A DNA stretch of 63,203 nucleotides, filler included, from Pelomyxa schiedti (GCA_020536535.1; 12 parts of 12 records of this genome joined end to end with filler, not necessarily neighbours in it); one strand, 5' to 3'. Numbered from the whole stretch's first letter, positions 13,154 to 62,048 are shown. The notes: a model not told the origin generated them from the sequence alone. Made by a program: numbers and translations.

Positions 13154-13346
13154 CACAGGCGGGCACTCGAAATTTCTTGTCTTGCCGTTTCCTGAAACCA
13201 GGTTGGGGGATCCTTGGGAGAGCCACCAACCTGTGATCCTTACTGCAACACGAGTGTCGCTCAGTGAGGACCATTCAGGGGAACAAGAGAGCAAGATTCC
13301 TCGAGGAAAAAACACAGAAGCTGGAATTCCAACTTCGTTTTTTCGA

Positions 13347-34538: not shown

Positions 34539-35430
34539 TCAGGAGAGAGATGTGGAGTGGAGGCTCTTGAAAAGAACTTTGGTGGATCCTGGTGCAAATT
34601 GGAGTGAGATAACAACAGTCCCTGTTGTTGCCTCTTCTACTGTGGTCCTTATGATAACTCCCTTTTTCCAACCACCCAAGTTGAAGTGCTTGAAGAAGAA
34701 ACCTGATTCGGCCTTCCACTGATAGATTCCATCATTCTGTTGCACCACTCTCAGTGGCTTATCCACCTTGTTGCAGTCCCAGAACTCAACACTGACCTGA
34801 ACTCGCTCGGGTTTGACAATTGTGGATGACACCAGGAAAATACTACAGTCTTGCTGTAATAGGAATACAAAAGTACCGTGGTCCTGATGCAAGCACAAAG
34901 GAGTGAAGGCCCCAGTGGTTTCTTCAACCATGAGAACTTCCCCACTAAATGACAAAATGAACACATTGATGCCATTTTTCCTCCTCATACAGAGATGTGC
35001 ACACAAGCCATTAGAGACTGGAATNNNNNNNNNNNNNNNNNNNNNNNNNNNNNNNNNNNNNNNNNNNNNNNNNNNNNNNNNNNNNNNNNNNNNNNNNNNN
35101 NNNNNNNNNNNNNNNNNNNNNNNNCTCGTCCAGCATGTGTTTTTCCCATTCCACGTGAAATTTGCTGGTGACGTCACCAATGACGCCAGATGTCAGGGGT
35201 GAGACGCCAAACGCCAGAACGTGGGAGCACTCTCCAAAATCAAAAGTGTGCAGGGTGGACACAACCGCGTAGCGGCGCGGCGTGGTCGTGATGTCCCATA
35301 ATTGCCTCGCGAGGGACGGGTTGCGGCACAATGGATGTGCGGGGCTCTCGTGCCCGCACCGAACTTGCCCTGACATCAAGAAGGCAAGGAACTGATCCGA
35401 AACTCTAAGCAACACCCCGACCGTTGCCAT
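34539..35430 (-). CDS. RCGxxSP-family protein, member 1 (gap filled by 30145-30537)
   Basis: DQFLAFLMSGQVRCGHESPAHPL..LW, FGVSPLT, VEETTG, FWDCNKVDKPLR. Intronless. Confidence 0.8.
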
Positions 35431-35499
35431 CACAGAAAAAAAAAAAGGCAAGACTTTTGATTGATTAGCGGAAAGATCATTGTTTCAGAGGACGGTTTC

Positions 35500-36890
35500 T
35501 CAGGGTGCATACGAAAAGAGCTTGGTTATTTTGATGCACTCAGACGGAGGAAACTGGATGGAGAGCACATTATGACCTTCTGGAATTGCATCAGACACAG
35601 TGATTCTTCTGATTCCCTCTTCTGGTCCTGACAGTTTGGACACCTTGAAGGAAAAGCCAGAATCAGAAATCCATTGGCACAGATCCCGCTTCATCACAGT
35701 CCTCAGTGGCTTGGCTGTATTGTTGCAGTCCCAGAATTCGGCACAGAAAATTACCGTGTTGTAAGAGATCAAGAAAATCCTGCTATCTTGCTGCGACAAC
35801 AGTGGTGATGCTTCCTTGGATACACAGGCGCATTTCCCAGTGGTTTCTTCTGCCACCAGCACTCTACTGCCAGTAGCAAAGGAAGATACAAAAACGATCA
35901 CATTTGTGCCGTTTTCCTTTCTCATGCAAATAACACAATCCACTGAGCGAGGACGTCCAATGTGAGTTTTGACTCTTGTGGAGCTCACAATTGCTGGCTG
36001 TTTCGTTTCCAACGTCGTCCTGAGGTCGAGGACTTGAATCACAAATACAGGTTGGTAACCATCACGAAGGCCAACAACCACGGCCTGCTCCTCTGGGTCC
36101 AAGCTATTGAACCCAATCCAGGATATACCCTCAACTGAGAGTCTAATCAGTGGTGCCTTGAGTGAAATTTCTCCCACCTTCATAACAACAAAAGCTGAGC
36201 CTGTACTGGGTCCACACAGGTTGGCATGTCCCGCCGCAATCAGCCACTTGTTGTTTGCCAAACACTTTCCAATTATCATGGTCCATAAAAAATTGGCCCC
36301 TTGACCAGTTTCCAAATCGGTGATCGTTGACCGCCGCCGATCGAAGCAGTGCCTTTCGTCGAGCATGGCTATTGGCCTGCAGTTGCCTGTGACCTCACCA
36401 ACCGTGCTCAGCACAAGGGGCGACACGGCAAAAGTAAACGTGAAATAATGGGATGTGTCTGTGCCGTCGCACGCCGATAGCACCATCACGAATTTGCGTG
36501 GGGTGAAGGTGCACAACTCCCACAATTGGCAAGGGAGGGAGGCGTTGCGGCCACAAAGGGTGCGCGCTGGGCTCCGCTGCCCACACCGCTCGTGGCTAGA
36601 CATCATGAAAGCGTGAAATTGATCACGGGCACGCAAAGGNNNNNNNNNNNNNNNNNNNNNNNNNNNNNNNNNNNNNNNNNNNNNNNNNNNNNNNNNNNNN
36701 NNNNNNNNNNNNNNNNNNNNNNNNNNNNNNNNNNNNNNNCCCACAATTGGCAAGGGAGGGAGGCGTTGCGGCCACAAAGGGTGCGCGCTGGGCTCCGCTG
36801 CCCACACCGCTCGTGGCTAGACATCATGAAAGCGTGAAATTGATCACGGGCACGCAAAGGCGACAGCGAAAACAAAGGTCCCTGGCTCAT
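35500..36890 (-). CDS. RCGxxSP-family protein, member 2 (false gap; 36519-36639 = 36740-36860)
   Basis: ARDQFHAFMMSSHERCGQRSPARTL..LW, FAVSPLV, NNKWLI, FWDCNNTAKPLR. Confidence 0.85.
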
Positions 36891-37260
36891 TGAACAACGA
36901 CCGTTGAACTTCCCAGTCCTTCCTTTTGTGTGCGATTCGTTGAACCGTTGAAATCAAGATGAGGCTGATGGAATTCGGTGATGATCTGGAACACTGAATA
37001 TATTCTTGCACACGTGCAACCCCATGCACAATAACAACAAGAGAACCTTTCTTCATTTCCCTTCGTTCTTTTCACTTAACTTTCAATCCCACACAAGTAA
37101 GATGATGTGTCTGCCTTTGGGATGGACCTGAGAGAAAGGAGTAGCATCGCCGGACAAGTCCCAATAGCAAGAGGACTCCCTCTGTTGGAGCTTCAGTGTC
37201 TGGCCTTGGATTCCCGCCCAGAACATACTCCAACATCTCAAGTACAACAAAGAAACAAAT

Positions 37261-38460
37261 TTATGACACGTTACATGGTGAGTGTGGCTCTTTTCTCTCA
37301 CAGTGGGAGGAATGACTCCTGTGAGTTCCAGACGATAATAGCCTCTCTATTCTGATGTAGTCATTTGGGGGAAACTTCAGTGAGAGAACATGAGTCCCAG
37401 AGGTTCCCTCCTCAACATCCAGGCATGTGCCCAAAACCTTGAAGAAAAAGCCACCGGCAGCAATCCATTCATAAACACCTCGTTGTTGCACGACTCTGAG
37501 TGGTTTTGATGTGTTGTTGCAGTCCCAGAACTGAGCACAGCAAGTATCTGGAGTGTTCGGGATGGAGAAAGAAACCAAGAACACCCGGTCATCTTGCTGT
37601 GACAATGAAGACATCCTTGCCTTTGATACACAGGTGGCAGTGCCAGTGGTTTCTTCCACCAGGAGGATTTCATTGCCACTAGAAAAAGAAAATGGCACAA
37701 CGAACACATTGGTGCCATTTTCCCTCCTCATGCATAGAAGGGGGGATTCCAGGAAGCGAGAAGGGTGATCTCTGAGAAATGACACCGGTGTGGAGCTCAC
37801 AATTTCCATGCTCTTCATTTCAAAAGTGAGCGCCATGTTGACCAGTTGAATAAGTACCGCGATTCCATAATCGCCATACTCAAGAGTCTCCACCACCACA
37901 GCCTCTTCCTCTGGATTTGAGCTGTTGAATCCCATCCAATAGATATGATGCGACAAACGAATAGGAGGTATCTCCAGTGGAAGTTGTCCCACCTTGGCCA
38001 CAACAAACGAACTATCACTGCACCCACAAGCAACCAGCCACTTGCGATTGGCCACACAGTTTTGGATTGCAAAGGGAACTTTACAAGCCTTGCCAGTAAC
38101 AACGTCCGTGATAATAGAGTTGAACCTCAAGTGTCTACCATCAACGGTGACGTCCTCCCGCCTGCAGCAGTTGCTAGTTACGTCACCCACAACTCCGAGT
38201 GTCAGTCCTGAGACGCCAAACGCGACTGAGCGGTATTCAGACACACAGCCCCACTCAGTTCCTGTGCGGGGTGTGCCATGTTCGGTGACGACCACCACAA
38301 ACTTATGGGTGGTGAGCGCGACCATGTCCCATAATTGCCTGACGAGGGACGGCCCGGCGCACATGACGCGTGCGGGGCTCCGCCGACCGCATCGGCAGTG
38401 GCCCGACAGCAGAAATGCGTGGAATTGATCTCTAGCAAGCAGAGGAACGACCGCTTTCAT
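37261..38460 (-). CDS. RCGxxSP-family protein, member 3 (399 aa, intronless)
   Basis: ARDQFHAFLLSGHCRCGRRSPARVM..LW, NRKWLV, VEETTG, FWDCNNTSKPLR. Confidence 0.88.
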   Translation of the reverse strand: MKAVVPLLARDQFHAFLLSGHCRCGRRSPARVMCAGPSLVRQLWDMVALTTHKFVVVVTEHGTPRTGTEWGCVSEYRSVAFGVSGLTLGVVGDVTSNCCRREDVTVDGRHLRFNSIITDVVTGKACKVPFAIQNCVANRKWLVACGCSDSSFVVAKVGQLPLEIPPIRLSHHIYWMGFNSSNPEEEAVVVETLEYGDYGIAVLIQLVNMALTFEMKSMEIVSSTPVSFLRDHPSRFLESPLLCMRRENGTNVFVVPFSFSSGNEILLVEETTGTATCVSKARMSSLSQQDDRVFLVSFSIPNTPDTCCAQFWDCNNTSKPLRVVQQRGVYEWIAAGGFFFKVLGTCLDVEEGTSGTHVLSLKFPPNDYIRIERLLSSGTHRSHSSHCERKEPHSPCNVS

Positions 38461-38768
38461 TTTTCAACGAAATAGACAACAGATTTGTTTTCTCTGGTGA
38501 CAAAAACTGTACAGGGGTTGGTCATGCATGAAAGGTCCAGCAATAAAATTACGAGAGCAAGTTAGAGGCCCAGCCCAGTACTGAGAGGTAGGGGTTGGCT
38601 TGAAACAGGTTGACTTGGAATGGGTTTTGGCCTTGCCCAAAGAGAATGGTTGCATAAGTTACTGTGATGGACTCTTTGAGCCCTGGACATACATCTATCA
38701 TGGCAAGGCAGCCCCCTTTTGGTGTGTAGTGTTAGGTGGGACTGCTACATAGGTGAGGATGCTGTGGA

Positions 38769-39590
38769 TTACCTGGAAGAAGAAAACCAAAACAGGCAAC
38801 TCCTCCGGACTGGACAATCAAGTTCCGGTATATCGGGAATATTTGTTGCGGGTATGGTGTACTCAAGAAGATAATACCAACCACAGGTCCTGGGTGTTTG
38901 GTGAGTCTTAAGAAACGGAGAGAGTAGAGCACTTTTTTTTTCCTGAAACGGCCAGGATAACACCATTGAAGATGGTGCAACTGAGAGGGTGGAAGGAGGA
39001 AGGCGGCTGTGCTGGCTGTATAATATAGATTGTTGAATGTAAAATGGTGTTTGCAGTGACATCTCCGCTAGTGTCGGATCACATATTTGAGTGATATCAA
39101 GTACTTGCTTCTGAGTGAGTTTTTTGCGTCCTCTGAGACCGCGGGAGAATAGGGAGACTGGATTTGAAACGATACGTTGGGTTCCGGGTATCCCATCGAT
39201 AACGAGGACGATTTGAGATTTCAAATGTACCCTTTAGCTTGTTAAAAGGAATAAACTCATAAAGCTCTCACCGACTCGAGGAACACTTGGGTTTAACGGA
39301 AAATTCTATAACATTGGCGCTCTTTGGCAAAGGAGCCATATTCATCTGCACTGTGGTTCCATTTTCGGGATTGCACTGAAGGCACAAAGCCTCTTCTGGA
39401 AATCCGGTTATTGACGAGGGAAAAAGATTTATTCTAACCTAGGGTTGGTCCTACTTTACACCACTTAGCTCTCTTCAGTGCCAACAGTGCCAGGGACATC
39501 CTGTAAATTTGTTACTTTGGTTTTTTACGCAAAAGTACTGAAAAGGAACACCTGTCCAAAGCGCAACCGCGCCACCAAGACTCATTTACA
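38769..39590 (-). CDS. Spliced hypothetical protein, possible DNA-binding domain
   Basis: LCLQC..FSVKPKCSSS|HLKSQIVLVID..VSNPVSLFSRGLRGRKK (basic tail). Family not recognised with certainty. Confidence 0.35.
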
Positions 39591-40108
39591 ATAACCAAGC
39601 GAACCTAAAACACATTTAACAACGAGAGAAGCTCACACTGTTCGGAACTAATTTGAAAAAAAAAGAAAAAAACCGCAAACTTGGTGTGACTTGTGCTTGA
39701 TGAGTACAGTATCGTCGATCTCCAACCTCATGCTCTCACACTCACAAGCACTGTTGCTGTCGAAGATCCGGCGCGGTGCCCCCACCTGCCGCTCTGTACA
39801 ACACGTTCCAATCATTTTTTTTCTTTTGTTACCTTCCCAACGTTTGATTTTGCTGTTGCACCAAAACCAGTATTTCCTTTGAAGAACAAAGATTCATCAT
39901 CAATCGCCAGGCGATGGTGAGATGCTACTGAGCTCCTTGTCAACCATCCACAGCATCTGATCAGCCAATTCACCTAACAGAACGGTCATTTCCATCTCTT
40001 GTAAGGTGTGTTGAAAGTTCACAGTAACGAAAAACTGTCGTTCCGATAACAGCCCTAAACGGCAACCAACAATAACAATTAACAAAATAAAAAAAAATAA
40101 AACTGACG

Positions 40109-43100
40109 ATGCGCGGCGACGAATACGCCCGGCGCGACACCCCCTCGTCGTCCTCGTCCGACGACTACGACGACGAGGGAACGACGCAGCCGCCTCCGGG
40201 GGTTGCTGCGGCGTCCGTGCAGCGCCCCAACAGATCCCGCCGAGCCTCCCGGCGCTACGACGACGCGTCCGGGGCACCGACGACGACGACTGCGACGACG
40301 GCGTCTACGTCGCCGAGCGGGGCGTCGTCGGCCAGCAGCAGCGGGGGCGACTACGACGCCTCGATGCTGCTCCTGGGCCTGCGGAACATACCCACAATTA
40401 CTACTACGGCAACGGCGGCGGCGGCTACTGGGGGCAGCGGGGCGGTGGCGGACGGCGATGTGTATGGCGGCGGTGGCGGTGGCGCCGGTGCTGAGGGAGG
40501 CGATTATCGGAGTGCTGCTGCGGAGGCCAATTGTGCGGCGCGGGGGGTGCACAAGGGGACCGGCAGGAATCACGGTCATAACCACTCCCATAATCGTAGC
40601 CATAGGCAGCAGGGTGAGAGGGAGGAGACCGGCAACGCGAGGCCCGGCGGCGGCGGCGGCTCGACTGGGAGCAGTAGCGGCACCGGCAGTAGCAGTGCGG
40701 GCGCCGGCGCCACGGGGGGGAATGATGGGATAGAGAAGGTGAGGACTTGCTACATCCAGGACCTGATGCACCAGTCCATTGCAGACCAAGAAGGACTGAG
40801 AGGGCACGTGAGAGGCAGAGGCACTGGGCACCAAGCGCAATCTTCTCCGCACCCAACGAGGCAGCACAGGTACCACCATCACCAGCAACAGCAGAAGCAA
40901 AGGACATGGCCAGCGCAAGAGGCCACTGAGGATGATAATGATCAATCAAATCGCGATGCGGAGATAGGACCGAGCCCTAAGAAGTTGTGCAATAACTCGA
41001 GGAGCCCCTCTCCCTCCCCATCTCCATCTCCCACGCCGAATGCAAGGACTCGTAGCACTGAAGCTGGTGATGGTTCCTCCTCGGACGGATATGACTCGCA
41101 GCCATCACCTTCTCAATCACCCTCTCTTTCTCCGTCTCTATCCCCGCGCCGTTCTGTATCCCCGGGACTGGCAGGGTTACTGGGAAATGGCGGCCTATCA
41201 CTCAGTTCTCTCTCTCTAGGAAGCTCTGCTCCTCTTACTTCTATTCCTATTACTAGCGGAAATTTGCCTCTACGCCGTTCTGGATCTCCTTCTCCATGTA
41301 GAAAGAAAGCCTCTCCTGGGCCGGGTGTACGCCGCTCTGCTTCGGCTCAGATGATAAGTAGTATCGTAGAGAGTGTTGGCGGTGGTACTGTTGGCGGGGG
41401 TAATGCAGCAACGACTAATTCGAGTGCTCTTCCACCGACAGTTGCCGCAGTTGCTGCAGCCTTAATTTCCCAGACACCACACACAGATAAGTTCACTATT
41501 CAAAACCAATTACTGCAACAGCACTTTATGCAATATGCGGCACAGCAACAGTCACAGCAACCGCAACCTCAGGCCCAACCTACACCGTTGCAACAACAAA
41601 TACTAGAACTTATCCTTCAGGAAAGTAACGCTAACATGAATTCCTCCCAAAAACAAATTCAACAGCTTCAGCTCCAACAACTTCTGCAGCAACCAAGTGA
41701 CTTAGCAAGCGCGACAATGGGAGCATTGTTCCCGTGTCACTCTGCCCCTTCTTTAAGTCCTATGCCTCTATCCTCTGTCTCTAAAGCTGAGAACTCACAC
41801 ACCCCCAATCCCAGCTGCGGCGGGCAAACATCTCCCTCCAAAGATCCGCCAAGTTCCGGCATCTCATCCACAAGCTCCCTCCCTAACCAACCCGTAACTC
41901 CCTCGGCACCAGGCGCTCTGTTTTCCTCGCGGTCCGCCCCAGCCCTCGGAATCTCTCCCTCTTCACCTATTTCTTCAGGTCTCATCTCCCACCTTATTGG
42001 AATTACCCAATCCGCAAGCGGAAGTGGGAACTCCACTCCAGCAAGCGCTGTTGCTGCTGCAACGGCCGCATTTTTGAGTAATCAGACCCTTGGCCCAAAG
42101 TGGCCAACATGTCCTTCTGTGTTTTCCCCACCTCCAACATCTAGTCCTCCTACCTCTGCTTCCAATGCCAGTTCTAACTCTCCAACTCGCATCAATGTCA
42201 TGCTACCTTCTTCGCAGCAGCCTTCCCTCCTTCTCCCACACTCGTCTCCCAATTCACATGGATCTCCTCACTCAACAGGTTCCCCTCACTCCCCAGGTAG
42301 TTCTCCTCTTGTATCTGCACATTCACCATCACAAAGCTCCTCGGATGCCAATGATCCGTCATATAGTCATCACACACTCTCCCCCATTGACTCTGTGGAA
42401 ACAGCAAGTGACTCAGTTGAGGATGCTCCTGCGCATCCCCTTACACAATCAGAGCAGTCTATAACTATCAAGTGCAGTCATGGACTTGAAAGTGTAACGA
42501 TCACCGTACCTCATGTTACTCCACAGACGACTGTTGGGGAATTTATGTACATAGCACAAGCACTACTACAAGAAAATGTGAGAATGCTGAAACCGGATAT
42601 CACTATGTTCATCCCACTAACGGACAGTGAGTCAGTAAAGCTTGGCGATCCAATTCTTCAGTTTTTAGGGTTTCTTCTGTCACCTCCCGTTTGATACAGC
42701 TAATACACAAACAGGGAAGATACATTCTTTGAATTGCTTACTCAAGATGAAATGGAGAAAGATTCCTCTCTTTCACCCAGAATAGCTGCCACACAACCTC
42801 ATCCGTCTTCTGATTCAGTTCCTCTCCCGACTCTCAATTCTCCATCTCAACCCATCGCAAACGAACCTGAACCCAAACCCTCACCCCCTCCTCCCCCTTC
42901 CACTGTTCCCGTTAGTGCTTCTACAGTCGTTACTTCCGATCCCGCAGTACCTGCTGCCAAGCCCTCAGCAGCACCGGCACCTACACGTTCCCCAACTAAA
43001 TCAACCCCAGTCACACTCACAGTCAGCAATGGTACTTCCCAACCAAGAGGACGCAAGAAAGCTGCCCGACAACCCTTCATGTTTGAGTACACTATGCTCG

Positions 43101-43407
43101 AAATGGCAGACGGTGGACGCAGAGTTGCACCCAATACAAGCTGCCACAGATGCAAGACAAGGAAACCACAGGTATTGCCCCGGTTATGAATATACAATAG
43201 CCAACCTTTCTTCACAGTGCCTTGTCTGCCCGCAGAATGATAAACACAAAGTACAATTTCCCTCCTCCCTCACCCTTTTTTGCTTAATTTTACTAGTTTT
43301 GCCTGGTTTGCCTAGAGAGACATCACAATACCGTTACAATTCCGGCGACTGGTTGCCCTTTATGCACACAATCATGCACATGTGCTATGTGCAGAAAGAA
43401 GTACTAA
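40109..43407 (+). CDS. Large disordered protein with C-terminal zf-4CXXC_R1 (CDCA7/JMJ-type) zinc finger
   Basis: SCHRCKTRK|CLVC..|FCLVCL..GCPLCTQSCTCAMCRKKY* across short introns. 861-aa S/Q/P-rich first ORF. Confidence 0.8.
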
Positions 43408-43505
43408 ACCGCATTATAAGTAGTGAACAAACTGTAACAGTATTCCAGTAGTTCAAAAACAAAATTTTTGCTATACTATAAGTGTTTGTGTATACATTCC
43501 AAAAA

Positions 43506-48017: not shown

Positions 48018-48343
48018 AATTGGTGGGGGGGGTGGCCTTGTCGCTATTGGTTACTGTGATGGGTGGTTTTCGGCTTTCGCCTTTTCTCTCGGTGCGAATG
48101 AACGAAAGGAGAAGTTCCTTTCTTTGGTCTTTCGTTCATGGAAAAAGGTGCAGTGTACCAAACGCAACCTGAGTCTCGCCACAGGAACAACGACGGGAAT
48201 AACATGATCGCATCATACTGTCAACATTGAAGAAAGATTGGGTTTTTTTGGGTAACACAAAATCCGACTTGAAGCATTGTTACCACAAACGGACTTGTCG
48301 TATGAAAACGAAGTTACTTGAAAACGTCTTGACTTAAATACTG

Positions 48344-49338
48344 TCAGAAGAACGACGGGTGCAATGACATAGTGAAATTGAGGGCGAAACCAGGACTGTG
48401 ACACAGCACAGCACCAGTGGCCACGTCGTACAGATCGTATCCATTATTCCACGTCATGATGAAGCCATTCCCTGATGTGGTCCATTGGCAGCCCTTTGGT
48501 GACAGAGGAATGAGGCAACATGGCCGGGTGAGGTCGCTGGTGCTGAACACTGACAGCTGCGTGTTGGTGCTGTTGACCACTGCGAAGTGTGTGTCATCAA
48601 CCTTTTGGAGCGGTGAGGTCCACTGGTTTGGTACCTCAGTCTTTGATGTGAACTTGTTGTCAATTCGCACAAACGAGAAGCGGCCGTTTTGGCTTTGAAC
48701 AGGCAGAAGGAACCCTCCAGTTTCGCCAGAGCCATACTTGAGAATCCCGCTCTGAAGCCTCGGAATCTTGATGCTGCCGGTTGGTTGTTGCGTCCTTCCT
48801 GAGACAAATCTCGATGCGTACACTGGTTCAAGATCAAGGTGCATCAGGGACATCACTGCTGCTGATGGGTCCTCCAGTGTGGGCAGCGTCCCGTAGGTAG
48901 AAAGCTCATCAAGGCTTGGGATTGAGTCCATCATTTTCGTGAATTCTACCCACAGGAACTTCCTCACAGATAAATTGAGCAAGCCGCCTTCGTGCAGTCC
49001 ACATGGCCAAATAACAAGCTCCCCGCGATCTTCAATATGACCCTGGTTTCTGCAGTACAACACAGCCCACTTCTCATTGCTGATAAACCCATCAAACGGC
49101 GCATCTGAGTTGACCAGAAGGGCCACCCTCGTTGCAGGATCCAGCACGTAAAACTCACCACTTGTTGCTCTGATCACAGCAGTGTTTCCAGCCATTCCAA
49201 AAACAGTCATGCCCTCTGGTACCGTATGTTGGGAAACCTTCGTTCCAGAAAACTTTCGTTGCCCAAAACTTTCGTTGTCAAAAACTTTTGTTGCCGAAAA
49301 TGATTCGTGGCCAAAATGATCGTACCCTTCGAAGGCCG
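48344..49338 (-). CDS. RCGxxSP-family protein, member 4 (5' end lost in gap)
   Basis: Beta-rich ORF with SNEKWAV and VFSTSDLTRPCC. Close paralog of 49439-50448. Confidence 0.7.
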
Positions 49339-49438
49339 NNNNNNNNNNNNNNNNNNNNNNNNNNNNNNNNNNNNNNNNNNNNNNNNNNNNNNNNNNNNNN
49401 NNNNNNNNNNNNNNNNNNNNNNNNNNNNNNNNNNNNNN

Positions 49439-50448
49439 TGAGGCAACATGGCCGGGTGAGGTCGCTGGTGCTGAACACTGACAGCTGCGTGTTGGTGCTG
49501 TTGACCACTGCGAAGTGTGTGTCATCAACCTTTTGGAGCGGTGAGGTCCACTGGTTTGGCACCTCAGTCTTTGTTGTGAACTTGTTGTCAATTCGCACAA
49601 ACGAGAAGCGTCCGTTTTGGCTTTGAACAGGCAGAAGGAACCCTCCAGTTTCGCCAGAGCCATACTTGAGAATCCCGCTCTGAAGCCTCGGCATCCTGAT
49701 GCTGCCGGTTGGTTGCCGCATCTTTCCAGAGGCAAACCTTGCTGAGTACACTGGTTCCAGATCAATGTGCATCAGGCAGAGCACTGCTTCGGATGGGTTC
49801 TCCAGTGTGGGCAGCGTCCCGTAGGTAGAAAGCTCATCAAGGCTTGGGATTGAGTCCCTCATTGTCGTGAATTCTACCCACAGGAACTTCCTCACAGAGA
49901 TCTGGTAAATTGAGCAAGCCGCCGTCTTGCAGTCCACATGGCCAAATAACAAGCTCCCCACGGTCATCAAGATGCCCCTGGTTTCTGCAATAGAGGATCG
50001 CCCACTTCTCATTGCTGATAAACCCATCAAACTGCACAGCCGAGTTGACCAGAAGACCAACCTTCGTTGCAGAATCCAGCACGTAAAACTCACCACTTGT
50101 TGCTCTGATCACAGCAGTGTTTCCAGCCATTCCAAAAACAGTCATTCCCGCTGGTATATGACACTGAAGCCTGAATGACAATGAACCACCAGTGTAAGAT
50201 CGCACAGTCCGAGTCACGTGAGCACCTCCCCCGGCGTTGTTCTGGATGACCCATAATGCCGCCTTCTCCTTGGCCATCACCCAGCGCTTCCCGACCCAAC
50301 GGACAATGAGATACAGCGGGAGAATACGAACAGGGCTGTCTACGCCGCAGCGAGGGTGCACGCCAAGTGCCAACGCAATGAACTGTGTGTCCCCATCAAT
50401 GGTGTAAGTCTTGGATTGATCTCGACCCGTGTGTGATCCCTTGGGCAT
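49439..50448 (-). pseudogene. RCGxxSP-family member 5, frameshifted near 49900
   Basis: TQFIALALGVHPRCGVDSPVRILP..W. Seven extra nt (CCAGATC) relative to member 4 shift the frame. Confidence 0.7.
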
Positions 50449-51034
50449 GGGTTTGTTCTTTTTTGTGTTTTGTTTTAACTTTGCAACAAAAAAAAAAAAA
50501 GGACTACGAAATTGTTGGGGGAAATACTGCCGTTTTGGCATTTACCTGTGGTTTTTGCTTCTCGTTCTTTCTCGCCCCTCCGCGCTGCATTGATGTTGTG
50601 GGTAATAAAAATGAAGCAAAAGTAAAAGGAACAGGTAAGTTCAACGTTTTTAAATGCCGCTGCCCAGTCCCATCACATCATGACTATTCGGTGCGGGGGA
50701 AGCGCCCATTTTTGCCGTTGATCACACCAACATCAACCCTTGCGAAAACATGTTTCGCCAGACCCATACTTGATAATCCGAAGCCTCAGCACCTCGTATG
50801 CTGTCTGCTGTCTGTTACGTAGTTCCAGTGATCCCAAGGTAGAAAAGGCATGGCACAGCTTCCTCTTGTGGGCATTGTGGAGTTCCAAAGATGAAGTATT
50901 CCGGACTTCTTTTTCTGACAACTATGTTGGTTCCTGCAGGCACACACCACAATGTTGAAACACTGTCTGCCACTGGTTTTGTGGTATTTACTTCTGCTTT
51001 TTGTTCCCATAAGGAACGAAATAAGCTCTCGCAT

Positions 51035-51348
51035 TTAGTTAATGGTGTGTGTGGTGGTGTGGGTGTGCCTCACAGGGACATTGGCATGGACATAGACATA
51101 CTTTGCTGTGGCTGTTCCGGTGTTTTGCACCATGTGGGGTGTGCTGTGTGGTATGTAGATGGAATGGTACTGTGAAAGCGTGTGCTGCTCAAAATGAGAA
51201 CCCCGGTCTATCATTACTTGTATGGTTCCTTCTATGCAATTGACCATTTCTGAACTGTGATCAGTGGAGTGCAGGTCCATAATGCCTCCCGGTTCCAGAA
51301 CAACTAACCCGGCTCCCATCCCTGTGTGGAATCTTTGTGAGTACATTG
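51035..51348 (-). CDS. Cupin_2-like domain
   Basis: VVLEPGGIMDLHSTDH..EM...EG..IYIPHSTPHMVQNTG gives cupin motifs 1 and 2. Confidence 0.75.
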
Positions 51349-51399
51349 CGATTGATAGTTGTTCGGTATTGCGGTGTTGGTGAGTGGGAGAATTCTGGA

Positions 51400-52078
51400 A
51401 TTGAATTAGAAATACCGTCGCCATACAAACTGCCCTGCTCCAAGTCCCCTTCTATCGGGATATTTTTCCAGCTTTCGCATACAGCCTTTTCCGCGGACAG
51501 AGTCACAGCGGATGCATACAGGCGAAGTGTATAAGGGTCGGCGGCATCGAATAAAGCCTCAACAACGGCAGTGGCAGCCGTGCAGTCCACAGGGAATGTA
51601 AACATGTCACTCTCACCACGAACGTGCAACGTGGTGCCCACGGGCTCCTCTCCATCAGCCTCACCCAGTTCAATAGCTACAAACAAAAACACATTCAACC
51701 ACGTTAGAGCAAATACTTTGTATTTGAAAAAAAAAAAAATTAAAAAAAAAAATACAATCGCAAAGTAGCCGGCCCTCCCTCACAACAAAACGCATTGCGA
51801 CACACAAAAACTGCGTGGCAGGCAGACAAAGGGGAGCACATACTTGAGAAGGTGTCGAGGTTGGTCAGGGCCGCCACGCGCCCCTTCACGTAAACTCGCT
51901 GTCCCGCGTATGACGACGGGTCGCCAACAAGGTCGCCGACGGTGACCCCAACTTGGGTGGTGTTGTAAGTCCCAGACGTTCCGAGAACGCACGGCGACGA
52001 TGAAGACGAAGGAGGTGACCAGCAGGCAACGGACGCCACACAGCACAACCAAACGAACAAAATCACAGTCGGAGCCAT
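51400..52078 (-). CDS. Secreted Cys-rich protein (signal peptide, OB-fold-like start), possibly spliced to the cupin
   Basis: Hydrophobic N-terminus; VGDLVGDPSSYAGQRVYVKGRV; intron about 51679-51757. Confidence 0.5.
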
Positions 52079-52154
52079 CAACAAGTATTCCGTGAAATCA
52101 ATTTCTCTCGGTTACTGACTATCTGGAGTATCATGCAACACACGGTACTTTTTA

Positions 52155-53486
52155 TTATAATTGCACTCTCTTCATTTCACAGTTCACACACAGAACACCA
52201 ATTTTCAAACCAGTGACAACATCAAATAGGCCATACGACACTGACACATTGTGCACATCAGTCTCAGTGTGGAGCAGGTCTGACATTGTAAGGAATGTTG
52301 CTGCTGGAGTTGCAGGAACAGAAGGCACAGATACGATTCCTGTTCTGAAACCCACATGCGGGTTGGATTCCAAAACACCAAAGGAAGGGAACGACATGCA
52401 CGGGTTCACTAGATCCCTCACGTGATAAATACTGAGAGTTGACTCCCTGTGAACACAAATGTGTTCGTTGCTGGCAACCTCAAGGAAGCATGGCCGGTTG
52501 AATATCTGGGTGATTCCCGTGGTTAGGTTGCAGATAATATATTGGGTTTCTGAGCAGCTGATTGTGAACAAATCATCACCCACACACATGCACCTGCTCA
52601 CACCAAATTTGTCTGCAACACCGCAGCTTGGAACATCGACCTCCCTGACAACAGTGAACTTGTAATCAAAGGTTCTCTCCAAGTCCACAAATATCACACA
52701 GTGTGACCTACAGGCATGCAGTGCGGGTATAGCAACCACGCTGCTCCTTGTGTGATCCTCCCCCGCAAACGAACCGCCAAAATGCATCCTGTAATCCAAG
52801 CCGTTTTTCTGCGCTTTCGCAACCAGTTCGCCCCCAACCACCCTCCACAGCAGCATTTCCCAGTAGCCAATTATCACAACCCACCTGGTGTTGCCCACGG
52901 CCCTGACGCCCCCGCCCTGTTCCTCGTGGAATCCGCGCCAGGCCCGGATCCAATCCCCCACGCCGCGGCCCTCCTGGTCCAAGACAAAGAACCTCTCGCA
53001 GTCGGGCAGGTGTGACACGGCCAGGAACCTCCCGCGGCCCAGGGACCCGCTGATGTACGGGCCCCGCTCCCACACCCACGACTCGGAGGGGCCCACCAGG
53101 CAGCGGGGGGGCCCGGCCAGGCCGCCCGTGGCGGACACCCCCGCGAACACGTGGACCAGCGCCTCGATGTGGGCGGGCTGGGGGAGCCCAACCAGCAGGG
53201 TGAAGGCCAGGTCTCGGGATACGGGCAGGATCCAGCGGGTGGCGAGGTCCGCCAGCAGCACCGGGAGGGGGAGGTGCCTCGCGGGGCTGCAGGAGCCGCA
53301 GCGGGGGACGAGGACGGCAGCGGCGAGGGCGAGGAACTGGTCCCGGGCCAATGGAGCCACCTTATCGCTGCTGAGTGTGGTTGTTGCAGCTGCTGTTGTT
53401 GTCGTTGTTCTGTGTGGTAATGAGGCTGTGGTCGTACGCCTCATGAAGCAGCGCAACGGTGTGCGTTGGTTGTTGCCTTCAGTCAT
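52155..53486 (-). CDS. RCGxxSP-family protein, member 6 (intronless)
   Basis: ARDQFLALAAAVLVPRCGSCSPARHL..RW, GNTRWVV, FVDLERTF, IYHVRDLVNPC. Confidence 0.85.
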   Translation of the reverse strand: MTEGNNQRTPLRCFMRRTTTASLPHRTTTTTAAATTTLSSDKVAPLARDQFLALAAAVLVPRCGSCSPARHLPLPVLLADLATRWILPVSRDLAFTLLVGLPQPAHIEALVHVFAGVSATGGLAGPPRCLVGPSESWVWERGPYISGSLGRGRFLAVSHLPDCERFFVLDQEGRGVGDWIRAWRGFHEEQGGGVRAVGNTRWVVIIGYWEMLLWRVVGGELVAKAQKNGLDYRMHFGGSFAGEDHTRSSVVAIPALHACRSHCVIFVDLERTFDYKFTVVREVDVPSCGVADKFGVSRCMCVGDDLFTISCSETQYIICNLTTGITQIFNRPCFLEVASNEHICVHRESTLSIYHVRDLVNPCMSFPSFGVLESNPHVGFRTGIVSVPSVPATPAATFLTMSDLLHTETDVHNVSVSYGLFDVVTGLKIGVLCVNCEMKRVQL

Positions 53487-53922
53487 TTTGGGGTCAGGGA
53501 TTGGCAACTGCCCTTTTGCTACAGCGTAGATGGTGAAGTGAATGACCGCGGGAACACAGTGCGGTACAACAAAAGTAGTGAGGGGTCGCTCCACAACAGT
53601 TTCACGGAAGCTGTGGCGAGGTGACTTCGCGTCGCTGTAGTTCTAAGTACGGTTCTAATCACTAATGGATTTCTGGGAAAACTACTGCGAATCTGTTGGG
53701 GCCCTGAGGGAGATCCAGGCGACACCTAGAACTGATTCTAGCGCCTTTATAAGGCGGGAACAACACCATCGTAGTTATAGCAAGCAAAAGCTAAAGTAAT
53801 AAACAATAAACTCTTGTGTTTGNNNNNNNNNNNNNNNNNNNNNNNNNNNNNNNNNNNNNNNNNNNNTTAATTAATTAANNNNNNNNNNNNNNNNNNNNNN
53901 NNNNNNNNNNNNNNNNNNNNNN

Positions 53923-54431
53923 TGGTTTCTTCAGCCCCATTTTCAGTCAAAGGTTTCCTACCTGATTATACACGTTATTGCAAGATACACAAGCTTCTCT
54001 CCCTCGTTATGAAGAACGGGAACCACTGCTTCGTTGTGAAAAGTTACGAATCCATCAGGCTGGTCTCTGAGAGTTTCTCGTCCATACCGATTCCCACCAA
54101 TCAGGTTGCATGGCACAACCAGTACGAGAGACACTGCGACGTGTCGCAGCTGAGCGAGTCTCTGTTTTGCATCTCAGGGGAGTTTGCTGAGATCTGGGAC
54201 TGCAACAACGTCGCGAAGCCACTCAGGGCCATCACGTTCGCTGATCTTGGCGACGTGCAGGAGCGAGATAACTTTGGCTGGAAGGGTGTGAACCAAGTTG
54301 TTGCCAGGTCGGGGTTCCTGCTGCAGCGTGAAAAGAACAAGCTGAGTGTCATTCACGGGTCGAGCAATGCGCATTGCCTCAGTGTGGTCATCAGTGGCCT
54401 CATCAGCATCACTTCAATCTATGCCTTCTAG
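53923..54431 (+). CDS. RCGxxSP-family member 7, C-terminal part
   Basis: MKNGNHCFVV, SQLSESLFCI, EIWDCNNVAKPLRAI, ARSGFLL. Confidence 0.75.
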
Positions 54432-54605
54432 AAGCGTCTTTCTATGTGGCTATGAACTACTCCGTAATCATCTCTGAAGGGGAGTGACGGACACGTTTCA
54501 TGACGTTTGTCGCTAAGTGGTGTCGCTTACTCTGAGGGTGCCTTGTGTGATGAAGTCATCACACACCTGTGGAAACTTAATTTCCAAGAAGGAAAGACTT
54601 TCGTG

Positions 54606-55300
54606 ATGTCGACTTTACCACTGAGCGCGTTCACGGCGGTCGAGGGATACTCTGGCGTGAGTGCGGTGTCACAAATGGTGGCAGTTGCAATGGCGTCCCA
54701 CAATCGCTGCGGCGCCCGCTCCTTCGTTTTCTCCCCTTCACCATCGTCGTTTCAATCGTCGTCAGCGTGGATTGCGTTCCTTCGCGTTCTGTGGGAGGAA
54801 TTCGTTGTTCCAACCTCTGTTGAATTCATTGCCAATGTTGGGGTGAGTGTGAGTGATGGCACACAAAAGTACCAGGAGGAACGACCTGTTTACTTCAGCG
54901 TTTCACCGCTTCTGCTGGGGTTCATGCACCCGCTTTCCTATCACCCTTATAAGTGGGGACCATACAAGTGGGTGGGACCCAGTATGTTCCTGGAGCTCCA
55001 CGAATATACTGGAGCTCCTTACATTGCCGAAACTGTCCTCCTGGACACATCCAGCAATGATGCCACTACGATGAAGTTAGTTGGACTGGCGGATGGTGTT
55101 CGAGCAGACTGCAAGAGTGACGCCAACAGCAGGTGGCTTGTGACAGCATGGTCACTGCGGGAGGCATCAACCATTGTTGGCGGACCCTCAGATGGCTTTG
55201 CCCTTTCGTTTGTTCATTTGGAAACACCATGTGCAGATTCAACTCTTGGTGGTGTGCATTGCATGAGCCACGTACCTGATGATCCCACCTTTTCCAGGGT
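54606..55300 (+). CDS. RCGxxSP-family member 8, N-terminal part
   Basis: SQMVAVAMASHNRCGARS..VLWEEFV, FSVSPLLLG, ANSRWLV. Confidence 0.75.
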
Positions 55301-55400
55301 NNNNNNNNNNNNNNNNNNNNNNNNNNNNNNNNNNNNNNNNNNNNTTAATTAATTAANNNNNNNNNNNNNNNNNNNNNNNNNNNNNNNNNNNNNNNNNNNN

Positions 55401-56253
55401 CACCTGTCATTGCCCCCCGGAATTCTGCAAGTGCCCTCTTGTTTTCTATTCTCTTGTTTTCAATGAGGCTCTCCAGGTCTGCCAGCCACTGTAGAATTTT
55501 GCCTGTGTCTGCTCGGCGGATATTGAGTGGCTTGAGGGTTACCTTGTTAATGCACACTTGACCCCCCTCCTCTTTGTATGTTGGGCTCGGTTCTGTGGTG
55601 TGAACATATCTCTTCCAGCTGGCGTCGAACCAGTCCTCATCCCGGTGCCGATTGCTATGTGCCTCTTGGTCCTCCTCGTCATCCGCCTGTGGTGCCTCAC
55701 CCTTTGGGTCCTCCCTAGGTGGGTCCTCTCCAAGTAAGTCCTCTCCCATTGGGGTTCTAGTGGGAGAGTTGCGTACACTGTATTGCGTATCCTTTAGACT
55801 TGGTGGTGTTCGTTTTTGTATGATGTTCCCTGCCTGCCTAGGTATGCTCTGTGGGGTGCCTCTCAGTGGGGTTGCCACGCGCGTGTTCGCCTGGGTCACT
55901 GGTATTGCTAGGTACTGCCTGGTGCTCATCCTTGCTGGTGCCCTGATGTTAGGTTGTGAGTTTCCAATTTGAGGTGCTTCACCCTGGGTGTGCACCTCAC
56001 GCTCCCTTGCAGGTGGTATGGGGGTGGTGTTGAAATGGAGTCTTTTGGTTGTGTTGAAACGCGTCGCGCCGCGGTTGTTGTTCGGTGCTGTGTCTCCGCC
56101 GTTCTCTTCTCTATCTCTGAACACGACGCTGTCGTCCGCGCCGGGAATCGCCCCCTCCTCCTCGCTCTCGCCATCGCCGTCGCCGGCGTCGCCTTCAACG
56201 CCTGGCAATATAGGGCCTTCGGGTCGTAATTTCCCATCGTGCGCACTGTCCAT
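55401..56253 (-). CDS. Chromovirus gag (N-terminal part)
   Basis: ORF starts 66 nt after the PBS. Low-complexity N-terminus followed by capsid-like ILQWLADLESLIE. Confidence 0.7.
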
Positions 56254-56319
56254 ACTTGGCTGCCGATCTCTTGTCTCGTGGTTCTTTCAATTCTGTTCGG
56301 GGTAGTAGTATGTGTTTTA

Positions 56320-56331
56320 GCACCTCCACCA
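56320..56331 (-). promoter_or_regulatory. Primer-binding site TGGTGGAGGTGC (tRNA-Ala 3' end)
   Basis: Lies 2 nt after the LTR end. Complementary to GCACCUCCACCA, a eukaryotic tRNA-Ala 3' end. Confidence 0.8.
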
Positions 56332-56333
56332 CA

Positions 56334-56537
56334 TGTAGTAGTCGGCGGTCTTCTAAGGAAGAAAGTGGGATAACTTTGGGGGTATCTATTATTCTTCGTT
56401 TACTCTGGTTATCATTCGCGTTGCAGGTGCTAGCTGACGTCACGGCTATCGTGCTATTCCAGATGTTAGATCTCTTGACTCTTGGGCCAGGTTGGGTCCT
56501 CAGTCTAGAGTCTAGTCATAGTGGGTACGCCCACACA
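56334..56537 (-). repeat. LTR (204 bp, TGT...ACA), PPT at 56538-56548
   Basis: Bounded by the PPT and the PBS; homologous to 2717-2918. Confidence 0.92.
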
Positions 56538-56580
56538 TTCCCCCTCTTAGAGCTACCAGCCATAGCCGCTGATGATTCCC

Positions 56581-57371
56581 TCAGTGTCTCCCATTCAGTC
56601 GCTCTTCCCGCCTCTGATCCCTGAACTTCTTAATCAGTGCTGTGCAGCCTGCACAGTCGTCCTCGTACTGCCACGTGTTATGCTTCTCGTCCTGATCTTT
56701 CCACTTTATTAGGTATTGCTTCCCATCACTCTTCCATCTCTCTCCCACCACAGCTTCAACTTCAGGCTTTGTCTTTGCTTGGCTTCCCTTGGTGTCTGGC
56801 TCTGTGCTGGCTCTGGCCTCTTTTGTGCTTGTGTGTCGGTTGTTGTCTGTTGGTGGGGCCTCCTTCACGAGGTCCCTGCTTTCCCTTCGCCCCTTCTCCC
56901 CCTCCTAGGGTTGGGGCTGTGTCCCCACGGTGCTTGCAGAGTTGCCCAAGGTTTACAAGCTTGTGTGACACCTCCCCTTCCAAGGATTCCAATCTCGCGG
57001 CTCCCTTTACTGGGATGTCTGTGATGCGATATGGTCCCTTCCACTTGTCTGCCAGTTTCCCTAGTTCGCGGTCCTTGTTTCCCCCATTCCGAAGCACGTA
57101 CACGAGGTCACCCACGTGATACTTCTCCTCCAGTGCCTCAATGTGCGGTTTGCGGCTGGAGTCCCATGTCTGCTTTGTCAGCTCCGCTGTCCGTTGCGCC
57201 AATTTCCAAGCCTCGCGCACCCTCCTTGTCAGTTTTTCTGCCTGTCCGTGAGCCTCTCCCGCTCCACCGTGGTCGAGCAACGCACCTGGCGTCCTGGCAT
57301 CCCGTCCATGTTCCAGGTAGAAGGGGGAGAACCCCGTCGTTCGACTGATTGCCGTTCGGTGCGCGAACGCA
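56581..57371 (-). mobile_element. Chromovirus integrase C-terminus/GPY/chromodomain, 5'-truncated, 1-nt frameshift
   Basis: Near-identical to 57591-58360. Homology stops abruptly at about 57371. Confidence 0.9.
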
Positions 57372-57590
57372 CCCTAACTCCAAAAATTTCCCAATTTAAG
57401 CGTCAAATCGGAACCAAAGTGAGCCTCCAAATTGCTTAACTAGTGCACACTTTGGACAAAGTGGAGGGATTTCAAAGTGGCACCGCTTCGNNNNNNNNNN
57501 NNNNNNNNNNNNNNNNNNNNNNNNNNNNNNNNNNNNNNNNNNNNNNNNNNNNNNNNNNNNNNNNNNNNNNNNNNNNNNNNNNNNNNNNNN

Positions 57591-60588
57591 CTTCCCGCCT
57601 CTGATCCCTGAACTTCTTAATCAGTGCTGTGCAGCCTGCACAGTCGTCCTCGTACTGCCACGTGTTATGCTTCTCGTCCTGATCTTTCCACTTTATTAGG
57701 TATTGCTTCCCGTCACTCTTCCATCTCTCTCCCACCACAGCTTCAACTTCAGGCTTTGTTTTTGCTTGGCTTCCCTCGGTGTCTGGCTCTGTGCTGGCTC
57801 TGGCCTCCTTTGTGCTCGTGTGTTGGTTGTTGTCCGTTGGTGGGGCCTCCTTCACGAGGTCCCTGCTTTCCCTTCGCCCCTTCTCCCCCCCTCCTAGGGT
57901 TGGGGCTGTGTCCCCACGGTGCTTGCAGAGTTGCCCAAGGTTGACAAGCTTGTGTGACACCTCCCCTTCCAAGGATTCCAATCTCGCGGCTCCCTTTACT
58001 GGGATGTCTGTGATGCGATATGGTCCCTTCCACTTATCTGCCAGTTTCCCTAGTTCGCGGTCCTTGTTTCCCCCGTTCCGAAGCACGTACACAAGGTCAC
58101 CCACGTGATACTTCTCCTCCAGTGCCTCAATGTGCGGTTTGCGGCTGGAGTCCCATGTCTGCTTTGTCAACTCCGCTGTCCGTTGGGCCAATTTCCAAGC
58201 CTCGCGCACCCTCCTTGTCAGTTTTTCTGCCTGTCCGTGGGCCTCTCCCGCTCCACCGTGGTCGAGCAACGCACCTGGCGTCCTGGCATCCCGTCCATGT
58301 TCCAGGTAGAAGGGGGAGAACCCCGTCGTTCGACTGATTGCCGTTCGGTGCGCGAACGCCAGCATCGGTAGTAGCTCGTCCCAATCGTCCTTGTCCTCGT
58401 TTGCATAGATGCGGAGCATCTCCACGAGTATGCGGTTGTACCGCTCGGTCTTACCATCGGCCTGAGGGTGGTAAGGCGTTGTCATCCTCTGCTCGATCCC
58501 CAGCATTTTGCACAACCCAGTCATGATCTTGTTGGTGAAGTGGGTGCCTCGGTCGCTAATCATCACCCTCGGTATTCCTTTCCGGCACACCCAGCTGCGC
58601 ACCAGAGCCCTAACAGCAGACTCTGCATCTGGGTGCCTGGTAGCCTTGAGCTCGACATCCCCAGTGAGGTGGTCGATCATCACGAGGATATAAGAGTTCC
58701 CTCGCCTTGTGGCCCTAAGGGGCCCCACAAAGTCCAAGCTCATGGTGTCCCCAGGTTGGTTGGGGACTGGTAGTGGGTATCCTAGTGCCGAGTCCTTCCT
58801 TGCTGGCGCTTTCGCAACTGTGCACTGGTGACATCCCTGGCAAAACCCCTCCACGTCTGCCCTCATCCCTGGCCACCAGAAGTGGTGCCGTATCCTCTCC
58901 AGTGTATATGGTGCTGACATGTGTCCTGCGAAAATGCTGTTGTGGTTGTCAACCATGATTTGTTGGCGTAGTTCTTTGGGCACCACCACAGCCTTCGTTG
59001 CCCTAGTCTTCAAGGGATCTGCCTGCACCCGGTGTAATACGTCGCTCTCTGTGACGAAATCGTGGCGATTGAGCCCAGTCCTCAGCCTCTCAGGTAGGCT
59101 CTTGCCCCCTATCCATGCCAACAGCGCCTGGCAGTCCTTGTCCTTAGCCTGGGCCTCCCTCCACCATACGAGCCTATCCTCCAGGGCCACTATCATGAGA
59201 GCCCTCTCGGGTATTCTGCTGAGTGCATCCACGTTCCCCGACTCCTTTCCGGGCCTGAATTCCACTATTGCCCCATAGTCGTCCAGTAGCATCTGCCAGC
59301 GTGCAACTTTCCCTGTGGGTTGCTCCTGGTTTTGCATCCATGTTAATGCCTTGTGGTCTGTTTTGACGGTGCACCCTATCCCATGGATGTAGCTCTTGAA
59401 TTTCTTAAGAGCCCACACCACTGCCGCTGCCTCCAGTTCCCAAATAGGGTAGTTCTTCTCCCTTGGGTCGGTGACTCGGCTGGCAAGTTCGATAATGTGT
59501 TCTACCCCTTCGTTGTCCTGCTGGACCAAGGCTGCTCCCATCCCCAACTGGCAGGCGTCTGTGTGTATCTCTAGCCTGAACTCTGATTTGTAGTCAGGGT
59601 ACTCCAGAAGTAGCTTTCCCGCAATGAGTTCCTTTATGCGCCTAAAGGCACTCTCCTTTTGGGCATCCCATTGCCACATAGCTCCCCGTACTCCCAGTCC
59701 CCGCAGTGGTGCCGCCTCTATAGCGAAATTGCGGATGAATCGGCCGTAGTAGTTTGCAATATTGAGGAAAGTTTCGAGGTCTCCCTTCCACCCTTTGGGG
59801 CTTGGCCACTCAGTTAGGAGCTTTATCCTCCCTGGCTCCATTTGGATTCCCTTCTCCGACACAGAATGCCCAAGGTAGCTTACTGTGTGGTGCAGGAACT
59901 TGCACTTGACTGCCCGTGCCTTCAGGTTGGCAGCCCGAAGCCGCTCGTATACCAGCCTCAAGTTCTGGAGGTGTTCCTCGAAAGTGCGCCCCATGATGAT
60001 AATGTCGTCGATGTAAACACAGCAGGCCTGTCCAATCAGCTCACCCAGACAACGGTCCATTAGTCTTTGGAATGTTTGGGAGGCATTGATCATCCCAAAC
60101 TGCATCACGTTGAATAGAAATTGGCCTTTGTGGCATGTAAACCCAGTTTTATGCACATCCTCCTCTGCCACAGGTACTTGCCAGAATCCACTCATGAGAT
60201 AATGATAAGGGTGCAACCCATTCGCTCTTTCCCTCCTTGATGACGTTGATGCGGAGCATCTCCGTAATTTCCTTGCCCACAATCACCTTGTCCTTGGGGG
60301 ACATCCCCTTCTCCGGCCGACACACTGGCCGACATGCCCTCGTCGGTATACGATGCCGTTCGAGGTTTGTCCTCCCTAGCTTTGCTCGGTCGTTGGTGAA
60401 GATGTCGCTGAACGCTGCCTGGAGTGCAGAGAACGCCTTCCTCTGCCCCTCTGTTGCGTTTTCCCACGCTATTGCTGCTGTCTCCCAGTCATTGTCTCCC
60501 ATTTCCGCGGTCAGTAGTGCACACACTGCGTCGTCCACCTCGCGGCTGATCGCCACTGCAGCTCGCTTTCCAATCCTCTGTAGTATAG
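57591..60588 (-). mobile_element. Chromovirus pol (RT-RNaseH-integrase-chromodomain)
   Basis: SGFWQV, VYIDDII, TDAC, H-H-C-C zinc motif, DDE core (LDFVGP, SDRGTHF, GKTER), GPY, and EVEAVV..YLIKWK..NTW. Confidence 0.97.
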
Positions 60589-60688
60589 NNNNNNNNNNNN
60601 NNNNNNNNNNNNNNNNNNNNNNNNNNNNNNNNTTAATTAATTAANNNNNNNNNNNNNNNNNNNNNNNNNNNNNNNNNNNNNNNNNNNN

Positions 60689-61508
60689 GGTTCTTGAGGA
60701 TGCCAACAAAACGCAGTTTGCTGATACATGTCTACATAAAAATGTGGTGTGCGCCCACCTGTGACCGGGCCTGCGTGCATGACCACCCTCGCGGTGTTGG
60801 CCATCAGAGAAGAGCCGCTGTTCTCTGTCGTTGTTGTTGAAATCGCAACCGATAGGGAAACGACGCAACAATAACATACTCTTTTTTCTCCCACAACACT
60901 CGGTGATGGCAACCTGGAGCTGTGAGATACCTCCTCTTGTGAAGGCATCATTGAATGACATACTTCCCACAACAACAGCTGTTGGGGCAGTGCAGTGACA
61001 TTTGTTGATGTTCACGGTCTCGTCCAGTACCGAGTACCCGGCAGTTGTAGTGGCCCTCCCGGTTGATGTGGTTGATGAGAGCCTGTTGCGCATCAGCCTT
61101 GACAAATCTGCAGACAGAGAGGCAGTGGTAATTGTCCAGCTCATGGTGGAGGGGGGTCCTCATTCTGCAATCATTTATGTTTTTGACATGGAGCAGACCT
61201 ACAATTGCAAGAGCCTGGCTCTGCTGAGCACAACGAGGGGCAATTTGCCCATTTCCCACACCCTCAGGTCTGCATTTGTGATGAGGAACTGCAATTCCTG
61301 TTCTCCTTCATTTGGAAAACGTATTTTCATTGTGCAGATGGTGGAACGATTGGAGTTCTGTTCGGTCTTGTCAGCAGAGTCAGGTTTTATCTTCAGGATT
61401 TTTGACAACAAGATGGAGGTTTTGGATCCAATGTCAGAGCTGGTTGTTCTTGCTGTGGAATTTCCACATTTGACTCAGATCACTGTGGCTGTTGCTTCTG
61501 GAATCTAA
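60689..61508 (+). pseudogene. RCGxxSP-family member 9, C-terminal part, frameshifted and internally shortened
   Basis: FDMEQTY..LLSTTR, AFVMRN..IFIV, AESGFIF, VLDPMSELVVLAVEF. The WDCNN block is absent. Confidence 0.55.
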
Positions 61509-61758
61509 TCAAAGAATGCAGAGGGTCTTTGAGGCAAAATTAAACATAAAGTCAAGCTTTCTCAAATTGGATAGTTTAAAACTCAAATTGGGTGCTTTCC
61601 TTTCCTTCCAAAGCCCCGTTGTTGTTCATCACACAGCACAGCAGAGGGTGATGATTGTTACTGATGTTGTAATTGAAATAAACTTGGTGGTGGAGAAGAA
61701 CGCGAAATACAGCGAGGATGATGGACGGAACAAGCAAACGTTTTTTCTACTACTAAAC

Positions 61759-62048
61759 TCAGGAGGAGGAGTAGCTGAGGAAAGCCAGAAGAGTGTCGGT
61801 CTCAGCATCAGTGATTACATACCTGCCTGGTTGTGACACACAACCCCACAAAAGAACTCCACCCACAAACTGGACCTGTGGGCTCCCCAGAATCTTCATT
61901 CGGGAACCATCTTGTGCATGTGGTATAACTCTCTCACAGTGGACGGTGCAGCATGGTGTTGAGAGGTTTCTGGTGTGGAACACCTGGAAAACATCATCTG
62001 ATGGTGCTGCACCAAAAAGGGTGCAACTGATTTGCCACGGCAAGCCAT
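61759..62048 (-). pseudogene. Probable RCGxxSP-family member 10, C-terminal remnant
   Basis: FQVFHTRNLSTPCC resembles VFSTSDLTRPCC; also ITDAETDTLLA. Confidence 0.45.

Follow-up and report, generated by a model that had tools for sequence, protein, structure and literature searches.

In the anaerobic giant amoeba Pelomyxa schiedti we identified a gene family whose members join a short, conserved N-terminal module to a variable C-terminal region of about 300 amino acids that is predicted to form a divergent beta-propeller. The best explanation for this architecture, to which we give a probability of roughly 40%, is that the proteins act as interchangeable cytosolic recognition adaptors. The propeller would bind varied targets, while the constant N-module would attach every member to a single common partner, for which an adaptor of the Skp1 family in a cullin-RING ubiquitin ligase is the likeliest candidate. 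The family and its module are apparently undescribed: we found no description in the openly searchable literature, where supplements of papers may list the family as orthogroups.

The window analysed here is a stretch of 63,203 nucleotides in which twelve scaffolds are joined by linkers. It contains all six N-terminal motifs from which an earlier, sequence-only reading had recognised a shared N-terminal module. A unit HMM built from 75 proteins on non-window scaffolds and run over the 1506 stop-to-stop frames of the whole window matched solely the loci M1-M9 (E 2e-77 to 1e-13, with one M4 piece at 0.003; Table 1). These loci are one real gene family, six of them (M1-M4, M6 and M8) carrying the N-module. 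About ten members on three scaffolds had been counted before; the three scaffolds stand (30024-53822, 53923-55300 and 60689-62048), but the distinct loci number nine, since the two other apparent copies arise from 121-bp overlaps in the assembly. Complete, uninterrupted single-exon ORFs are found at four of the nine loci (M1, M2, M3 and M6), and the remainder carry frameshifts, are truncated or run into the end of a scaffold.

Table 1. Members of the family and associated features in the window.
Feature	Position	Strand	Description
M1	34539..35430	-	Complete, 394 aa with the assembly gap 35025-35124 accounted for; length by frame arithmetic
Misplaced middle of M1, no separate gene	30024..30658	-	Shares 121 bp exactly with 34904-35024 and with 35125-35245; same frame
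M2	35500..36890	-	Complete, 389 aa (frame arithmetic); 36519-36739 consists of a repeated copy of a 121-mer and an N gap
M3	37261..38460	-	Complete single-exon, 399 aa; N-module at residues ~9-49, then propeller
M3 N-module	38314..38442	-	QFxAF..H.RCG..SP...L..LW; predicted helices 9-18, 31-34, 37-49
M5	48344..49258	-	Propeller part only, no N-module; unrelated sequence upstream; 92% nucleotide identity to M4
M4	49439..50448	-	Frameshifted by 7 inserted nt near 49899; a gap removes the 3' end
M6	52155..53486	-	Complete single-exon, 443 aa; E 9e-22; divergent subfamily shared with M4/M5
M7	53923..54431	+	C-terminal part, cut by scaffold start; E 1e-26
M8	54606..55300	+	N-terminal part, including the N-module; truncated by the end of the scaffold; E 9e-25
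M9	60999..61508	+	C-terminal part; in-frame stop just upstream; internal deletion versus profile; E 1e-21

Two of the complete members were recovered by correcting the assembly. Contigs from three DNA runs of one sample (X1, X2 and X3) bridge the gap in M1 in frame, with 387 nt in X1 and X2 and 393 nt in X3, and connect 36518 to 36740 in M2, so that M1 and M2 are single intact genes. The stretches 36740-36860 and 30024-30658 were rejected as extra members, because exact 121-bp overlaps tie both to the flanks of the 100-N gaps. The M2 stop lies 69 nt from the M1 start (35431-35499) and the M1 stop 52 nt from the next gene, spacers that leave little room for a promoter and a 3' end. The spacer between M3 and M2 (36960-37216) is polymorphic: all three DNA runs contain a form that lacks 37018-37123, as well as several substitutions.

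The previously described head-to-tail clusters and pseudogenes were recovered as well: M7 is followed head-to-tail by M8 after 174 nt, M4 is frameshifted, and M9, which has no recognisable N-terminal half, is judged from its sequence to be a probable pseudogene. M4 and M5 could be alleles placed in tandem. In place of the 5' part of M5 stands a short repetitive sequence (49225-49338), possibly a mobile-element end or a scaffolding join. Inside the span 34539-62048 given earlier for the family, the scaffold at 55401-60588 is an unrelated LTR retrotransposon with reverse transcriptase, RNase H, integrase and chromodomain, of which a second copy, ~91-92% identical, lies at 2717-5217. A high-copy element (53556-53822) sits just upstream of M6, with a summed contig depth of ~1750-3660 versus 18-74 on M6 itself. 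The contrast drawn earlier between intronless members and intron-dense neighbours holds in part: the complete members are single-exon and RNA joints at 38714-38772 and 51320-51415 show neighbours to be spliced, but intron-free long ORFs occur outside the family too, such as an ankyrin ORF of 475 aa at 14072-15499. For comparison, the available text of PMC8887013 gives an average of 7.43 introns per gene for P. schiedti.

The N-module, preceded by a leader of ~21 residues, spans ~40 amino acids with the consensus AR[DS]Q[FL]xALxxxSHPRCGxxSPARxL...LxxLWxW, and is present in 133 of 151 proteins. When 74 sequences were used to model it with AlphaFold2, helices were predicted at residues 9-18, 31-34 and 37-49 (pLDDT 82). 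Median pairwise identity was 40% in the module versus 22% in the rest of the protein, measured on 75 single-unit proteins whose selection for having the module favours the module in this comparison. No named domain had been recognised here by eye, and in agreement with this the N-module matched no known Pfam family; DUF7419 was rejected as its identity (E 0.015, in 1 of 21 modules).

Beyond the module, an AlphaFold2 model from 12 sequences (mean pLDDT 64, pTM 0.62) is all-beta, with a confident region at residues ~114-362 (blocks mostly at pLDDT 70-94) and a poor one at residues 25-113. Beta-propellers headed the matches of this model in Foldseek and VIA, where the highest Z was 15.4 (rmsd 3.5 with 226 aligned) and many structures tied. 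Because propellers of many kinds match equally well, the fold is supported without pointing to a parent family or a blade count. The KIB1-4 propeller domain (PF03478) is associated with F-boxes in plants, and one of 159 proteins scanned, the two-unit model P0157, passed its Pfam cut-off (37.5 versus 27.4 bits, summed over two units); two more matched below the cut-off and none of the window members matched. This may be a generic propeller likeness. PDB sequence matches to EMC1 (E 0.67) and TetR (E 0.037) were set aside as chance. Strong membrane segments (KD19>=2.3) were found in none of 75 proteins and a signal-like leader in 2 of 75, and CaaX ends were lacking; with no signal or membrane segments, the proteins are probably cytosolic. 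The earlier proposal of a single family with a conserved short N-module and a variable, predicted beta-propeller is thereby supported.

That the family is expanded well beyond the window, as first suggested, was supported by a profile search of 1.84 billion representatives of 50% identity clusters. It matched 433 clusters at E<=0.001, of which 267 reached E<=1e-10 and 47 reached E<=1e-30, far more than the window displays. Word-indexed searches gave one match each and therefore understate the family. Taxonomy was looked up among the best 150 of the 433 clusters: 19 of 20 proteins were named P. schiedti, and the twentieth, a Logan protein without a name, shares a cluster with a protein of P. 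schiedti (9/10 and 10/10 in the two sets). In a module-only search 24 of 25 matches were likewise named P. schiedti. In Pelomyxa the family is very large, probably numbering hundreds, and consists mostly of single-exon genes. Public gene models were seen to fuse family genes with their neighbours: P0003 (33536-38460) combines M3, M2, M1 and a Med22-like gene, P0002 (48344-50448) combines M4 and M5, and P0004 (~50700-53486) combines M6 and a cupin gene. Many long profile matches are such fusions of tandem neighbours, and we rejected domain fusions to Macro, eIF4E, UBC, Sel1, RasGAP and cupin as probable artefacts of the same kind.

The birth-and-death evolution proposed for the family was borne out. 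In a FastTree phylogeny of 168 units and 6 window pieces, M1-M3 and P0001 formed one clade (support 1.0), and M5 and M6 fell in a separate clade of 15 (support 0.999). Units within one gene model shared a median identity of 52% (n=27) versus 22% for random pairs, which shows birth by tandem duplication. Death is frequent: one contig of run X3 has a 1-nt deletion at 38207 in M3, one contig of run X1 has a 1-nt deletion in M4, and the 7 nt inserted in M4 are absent from one X3 contig, which may be of the M5 type. These polymorphic frameshifts, each seen in a single contig, differ between runs and mark gene death. Of the per-domain dN/dS analysis that had been envisaged, a single pair provided the sole estimate, M4 versus M5, with a value of 0.49 over 233 codons (18 synonymous and 29 non-synonymous differences) and no signal of positive selection. 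As for expression, an RNA-library contig corresponds to 350 nt of M4 (49440-49789) with one difference; the run it comes from contains spliced contigs from adjacent genes too, although DNA carry-over is possible. Contigs of the RNA run X4 covered M1-M3 and M6 with nothing more than short pieces of paralogue motifs, a result that can speak for presence but not for absence.

We then asked how the module relates to known cullin-adaptor boxes. The label ‘F-box-like’ in the sequence-only reading could not be sustained. F-box profiles (PF00646/PF12937) matched none of 21 modules and none of 159 whole proteins (148 + 11), and SOCS and BC-box profiles matched nothing in the same sets, while a canonical F-box at 12845-12970 that served as positive control was found by Pfam and matched F-box chains in the PDB. 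(This F-box motif lies in 12842-13438 on the minus strand, opposite an LRR ORF at 11997-12626 on the plus strand.) Alignment of the module to eight F-boxes with hhalign gave a probability of 0.06. An F-box-helix score of -5.2 for the module compares with -7.1 (sd 0.35) for shuffles, -5.6 for an unrelated helix of the module and 14-34 for real F-boxes, and thus reflects little more than helix periodicity. Many members do show the spacing of F-box helix 1 in the last helix, with tryptophan at F-box position +9 in 65 of 138 modules; together with the KIB1-4 matches this offers a weak link to F-box systems. In the AlphaFold2 model the last helix is followed by a strand, so that helices 2-3 of an F-box do not come where they normally would. 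The strict BC-box pattern, [STP]LxxxCxxx[VILF], occurred in 0 of 122 modules. A fold search with a 55-residue module returned nothing at E<=0.001 in PDB or BFVD, and VIA gave a best Z of 3.8, with F-box and SOCS chains lacking among the 50 matches listed; since a helical model of this size is too small to be placed by fold, these negatives carry no information. Complex prediction of the M3 module with a stand-in metagenome Skp1 (L042), made without alignments and with the module fold itself uncertain, scored 0.02, which speaks neither for nor against docking. By its sequence, the module belongs to none of three canonical types: F-box, BC-box and the WDxR element of DCAFs.

A role as an adaptor repertoire is suggested instead by architecture and evolutionary pattern. 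A constant module placed before a variable propeller, in a cytosolic family with tandem turnover, resembles the receptor repertoires of cullin ligases, which points to adaptors assembled on a shared partner. Plant expansions that combine an F-box with KIB1-4 (DUF295), Kelch or FBA domains likewise pair a short N-terminal helical module with a variable propeller in large tandem families, and one Pelomyxa member exceeds the PF03478 cut-off; the Pelomyxa module differs in having its own H.RCG..SP signature and in showing neither an F-box match nor the succeeding helices 2-3. In nematode F-box genes the docking domain is conserved and the substrate domain variable, and the Caenorhabditis FBXA family (F-box + FTH) shares with ours this division of parts and a large lineage-specific expansion, as far as the accessible part of PMC12062965 describes them. 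No sequence homology to FBXA was found, and positive selection and SCF binding have been shown for FBXA. The lineage-specific cullin receptors of trypanosomes (kelch or LRR, with no F-box or BTB) offer a precedent for box-free propeller receptors; these are small sets found by proteomics (PMC12816148, in the text available). The C-terminal region of the Pelomyxa proteins would, on the predicted fold, be a substrate-type domain like that of F-box proteins, and the family may function like an F-box repertoire while not being assigned to the F-box family.

Of the other explanations, a possible though doubtful one is that the N-module docks outside the ubiquitin system, self-assembles or attaches to membranes, for example by acylation of its near-invariant cysteine, so that the recognition repertoire would serve a different output. 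In favour, the module is unnamed yet conserved and has no sequence link to known cullin boxes, and the cysteine of RCG is present in 143 of 168 units. Against it, leucine takes this position in a weakly related giant-virus protein whose motif is similar, and CaaX ends and membrane segments are lacking. Somewhat less probable is that the module merely caps and closes the propeller, the family having grown mostly by drift through unequal crossing-over. Many copies are broken or polymorphic, core positions of the propeller (W164 99%, S96 89%) are as conserved as those of the module, and the M4/M5 dN/dS would fit, but the module is predicted to fold confidently without the propeller, both parts are retained across hundreds of clusters that share less than 50% identity, and, as a weak indication, a related motif occurs in the same viral protein without one.

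It is unlikely that the proteins are DCAF-like, with a helix-loop-helix before a WD40-like propeller binding DDB1/CUL4. The order of parts is that of DCAF receptors of CRL4-DDB1, in which a helical H-box directly precedes a WD40 propeller (PMC6821201, in the portion accessible), and the final blades bear a faint likeness to WD40 (E 0.065-0.96). The family nevertheless has no WD40 Pfam match above cut-off. Of 133 units with the conserved WD, 101 have N at position +3 after it and 2 have R, and WDxR occurs anywhere in 4 of 168 units. We know of no DCAF set that forms a hundreds-strong tandem family.

Just as unlikely, in our estimate, is the far-reaching proposal that H.R[CL]G..SP marks a new kind of cullin-adaptor box that is also found in giant viruses and might be an F-box in permuted order, its first helix standing in for helices 2-3. 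Hundreds of box-propeller receptors (~1-2% of genes) would then form a surveillance system in the cytosol that polices the bacterial and archaeal endosymbionts living free there. The viral lead is L127, a 138-aa protein from a giant-virus MAG (990-1403, minus strand) whose first half is similar to the module (hhalign probability 29, a weak match), with leucine in place of cysteine, followed by LPxDVxxI and a C-terminus that is weakly NAC-like. Its relatives were not found in the viral contigs scanned, where the Pelomyxa-type pattern had 0 matches and RLG-type patterns, for which ~1 chance match is expected and one of which retrieved L127, had 1 and 3, of which 2 were off-frame chance matches. 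The RLG-type motif of L127 occurs without a propeller, and its tail is NAC/UBA-like; the adjoining ORF (L128:3-1268, minus strand) may resemble a U-box + vWA protein. Lastly, a transposon-derived or spurious origin of the ORFs, which single-exon genes in an intron-rich species, the high-copy element upstream of M6 and the LTR retrotransposons might suggest, is very improbable and largely refuted by the lack of matches to transposon, phage or prokaryotic families (mobile-element and phage domains were scanned), the coherent predicted fold, the maintenance of ORFs at ~22% identity and the RNA-library contig of M4.

If the family is indeed a repertoire of adaptors on a shared partner, its identification bears on how this amoeba deals with its residents. 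Both bacteria and a methanogen live unenclosed in the cytosol of P. schiedti, according to the accessible text of PMC10579272. A cytosolic, fast-turnover family with a constant, unnamed tag would suit the task of recognising and controlling such endosymbionts, which makes them attractive candidate targets, although the partner and any targets among symbionts or other invaders are a matter of speculation. Should all 267-433 clusters belong to Pelomyxa, the family would make up ~1.3-2.2% of its 19,876 predicted proteins. Even if no ligase partner is found, the module and propeller are a new domain pair for annotation, and a single partner of the 40-residue module would offer a directly testable handle on the role of the repertoire.
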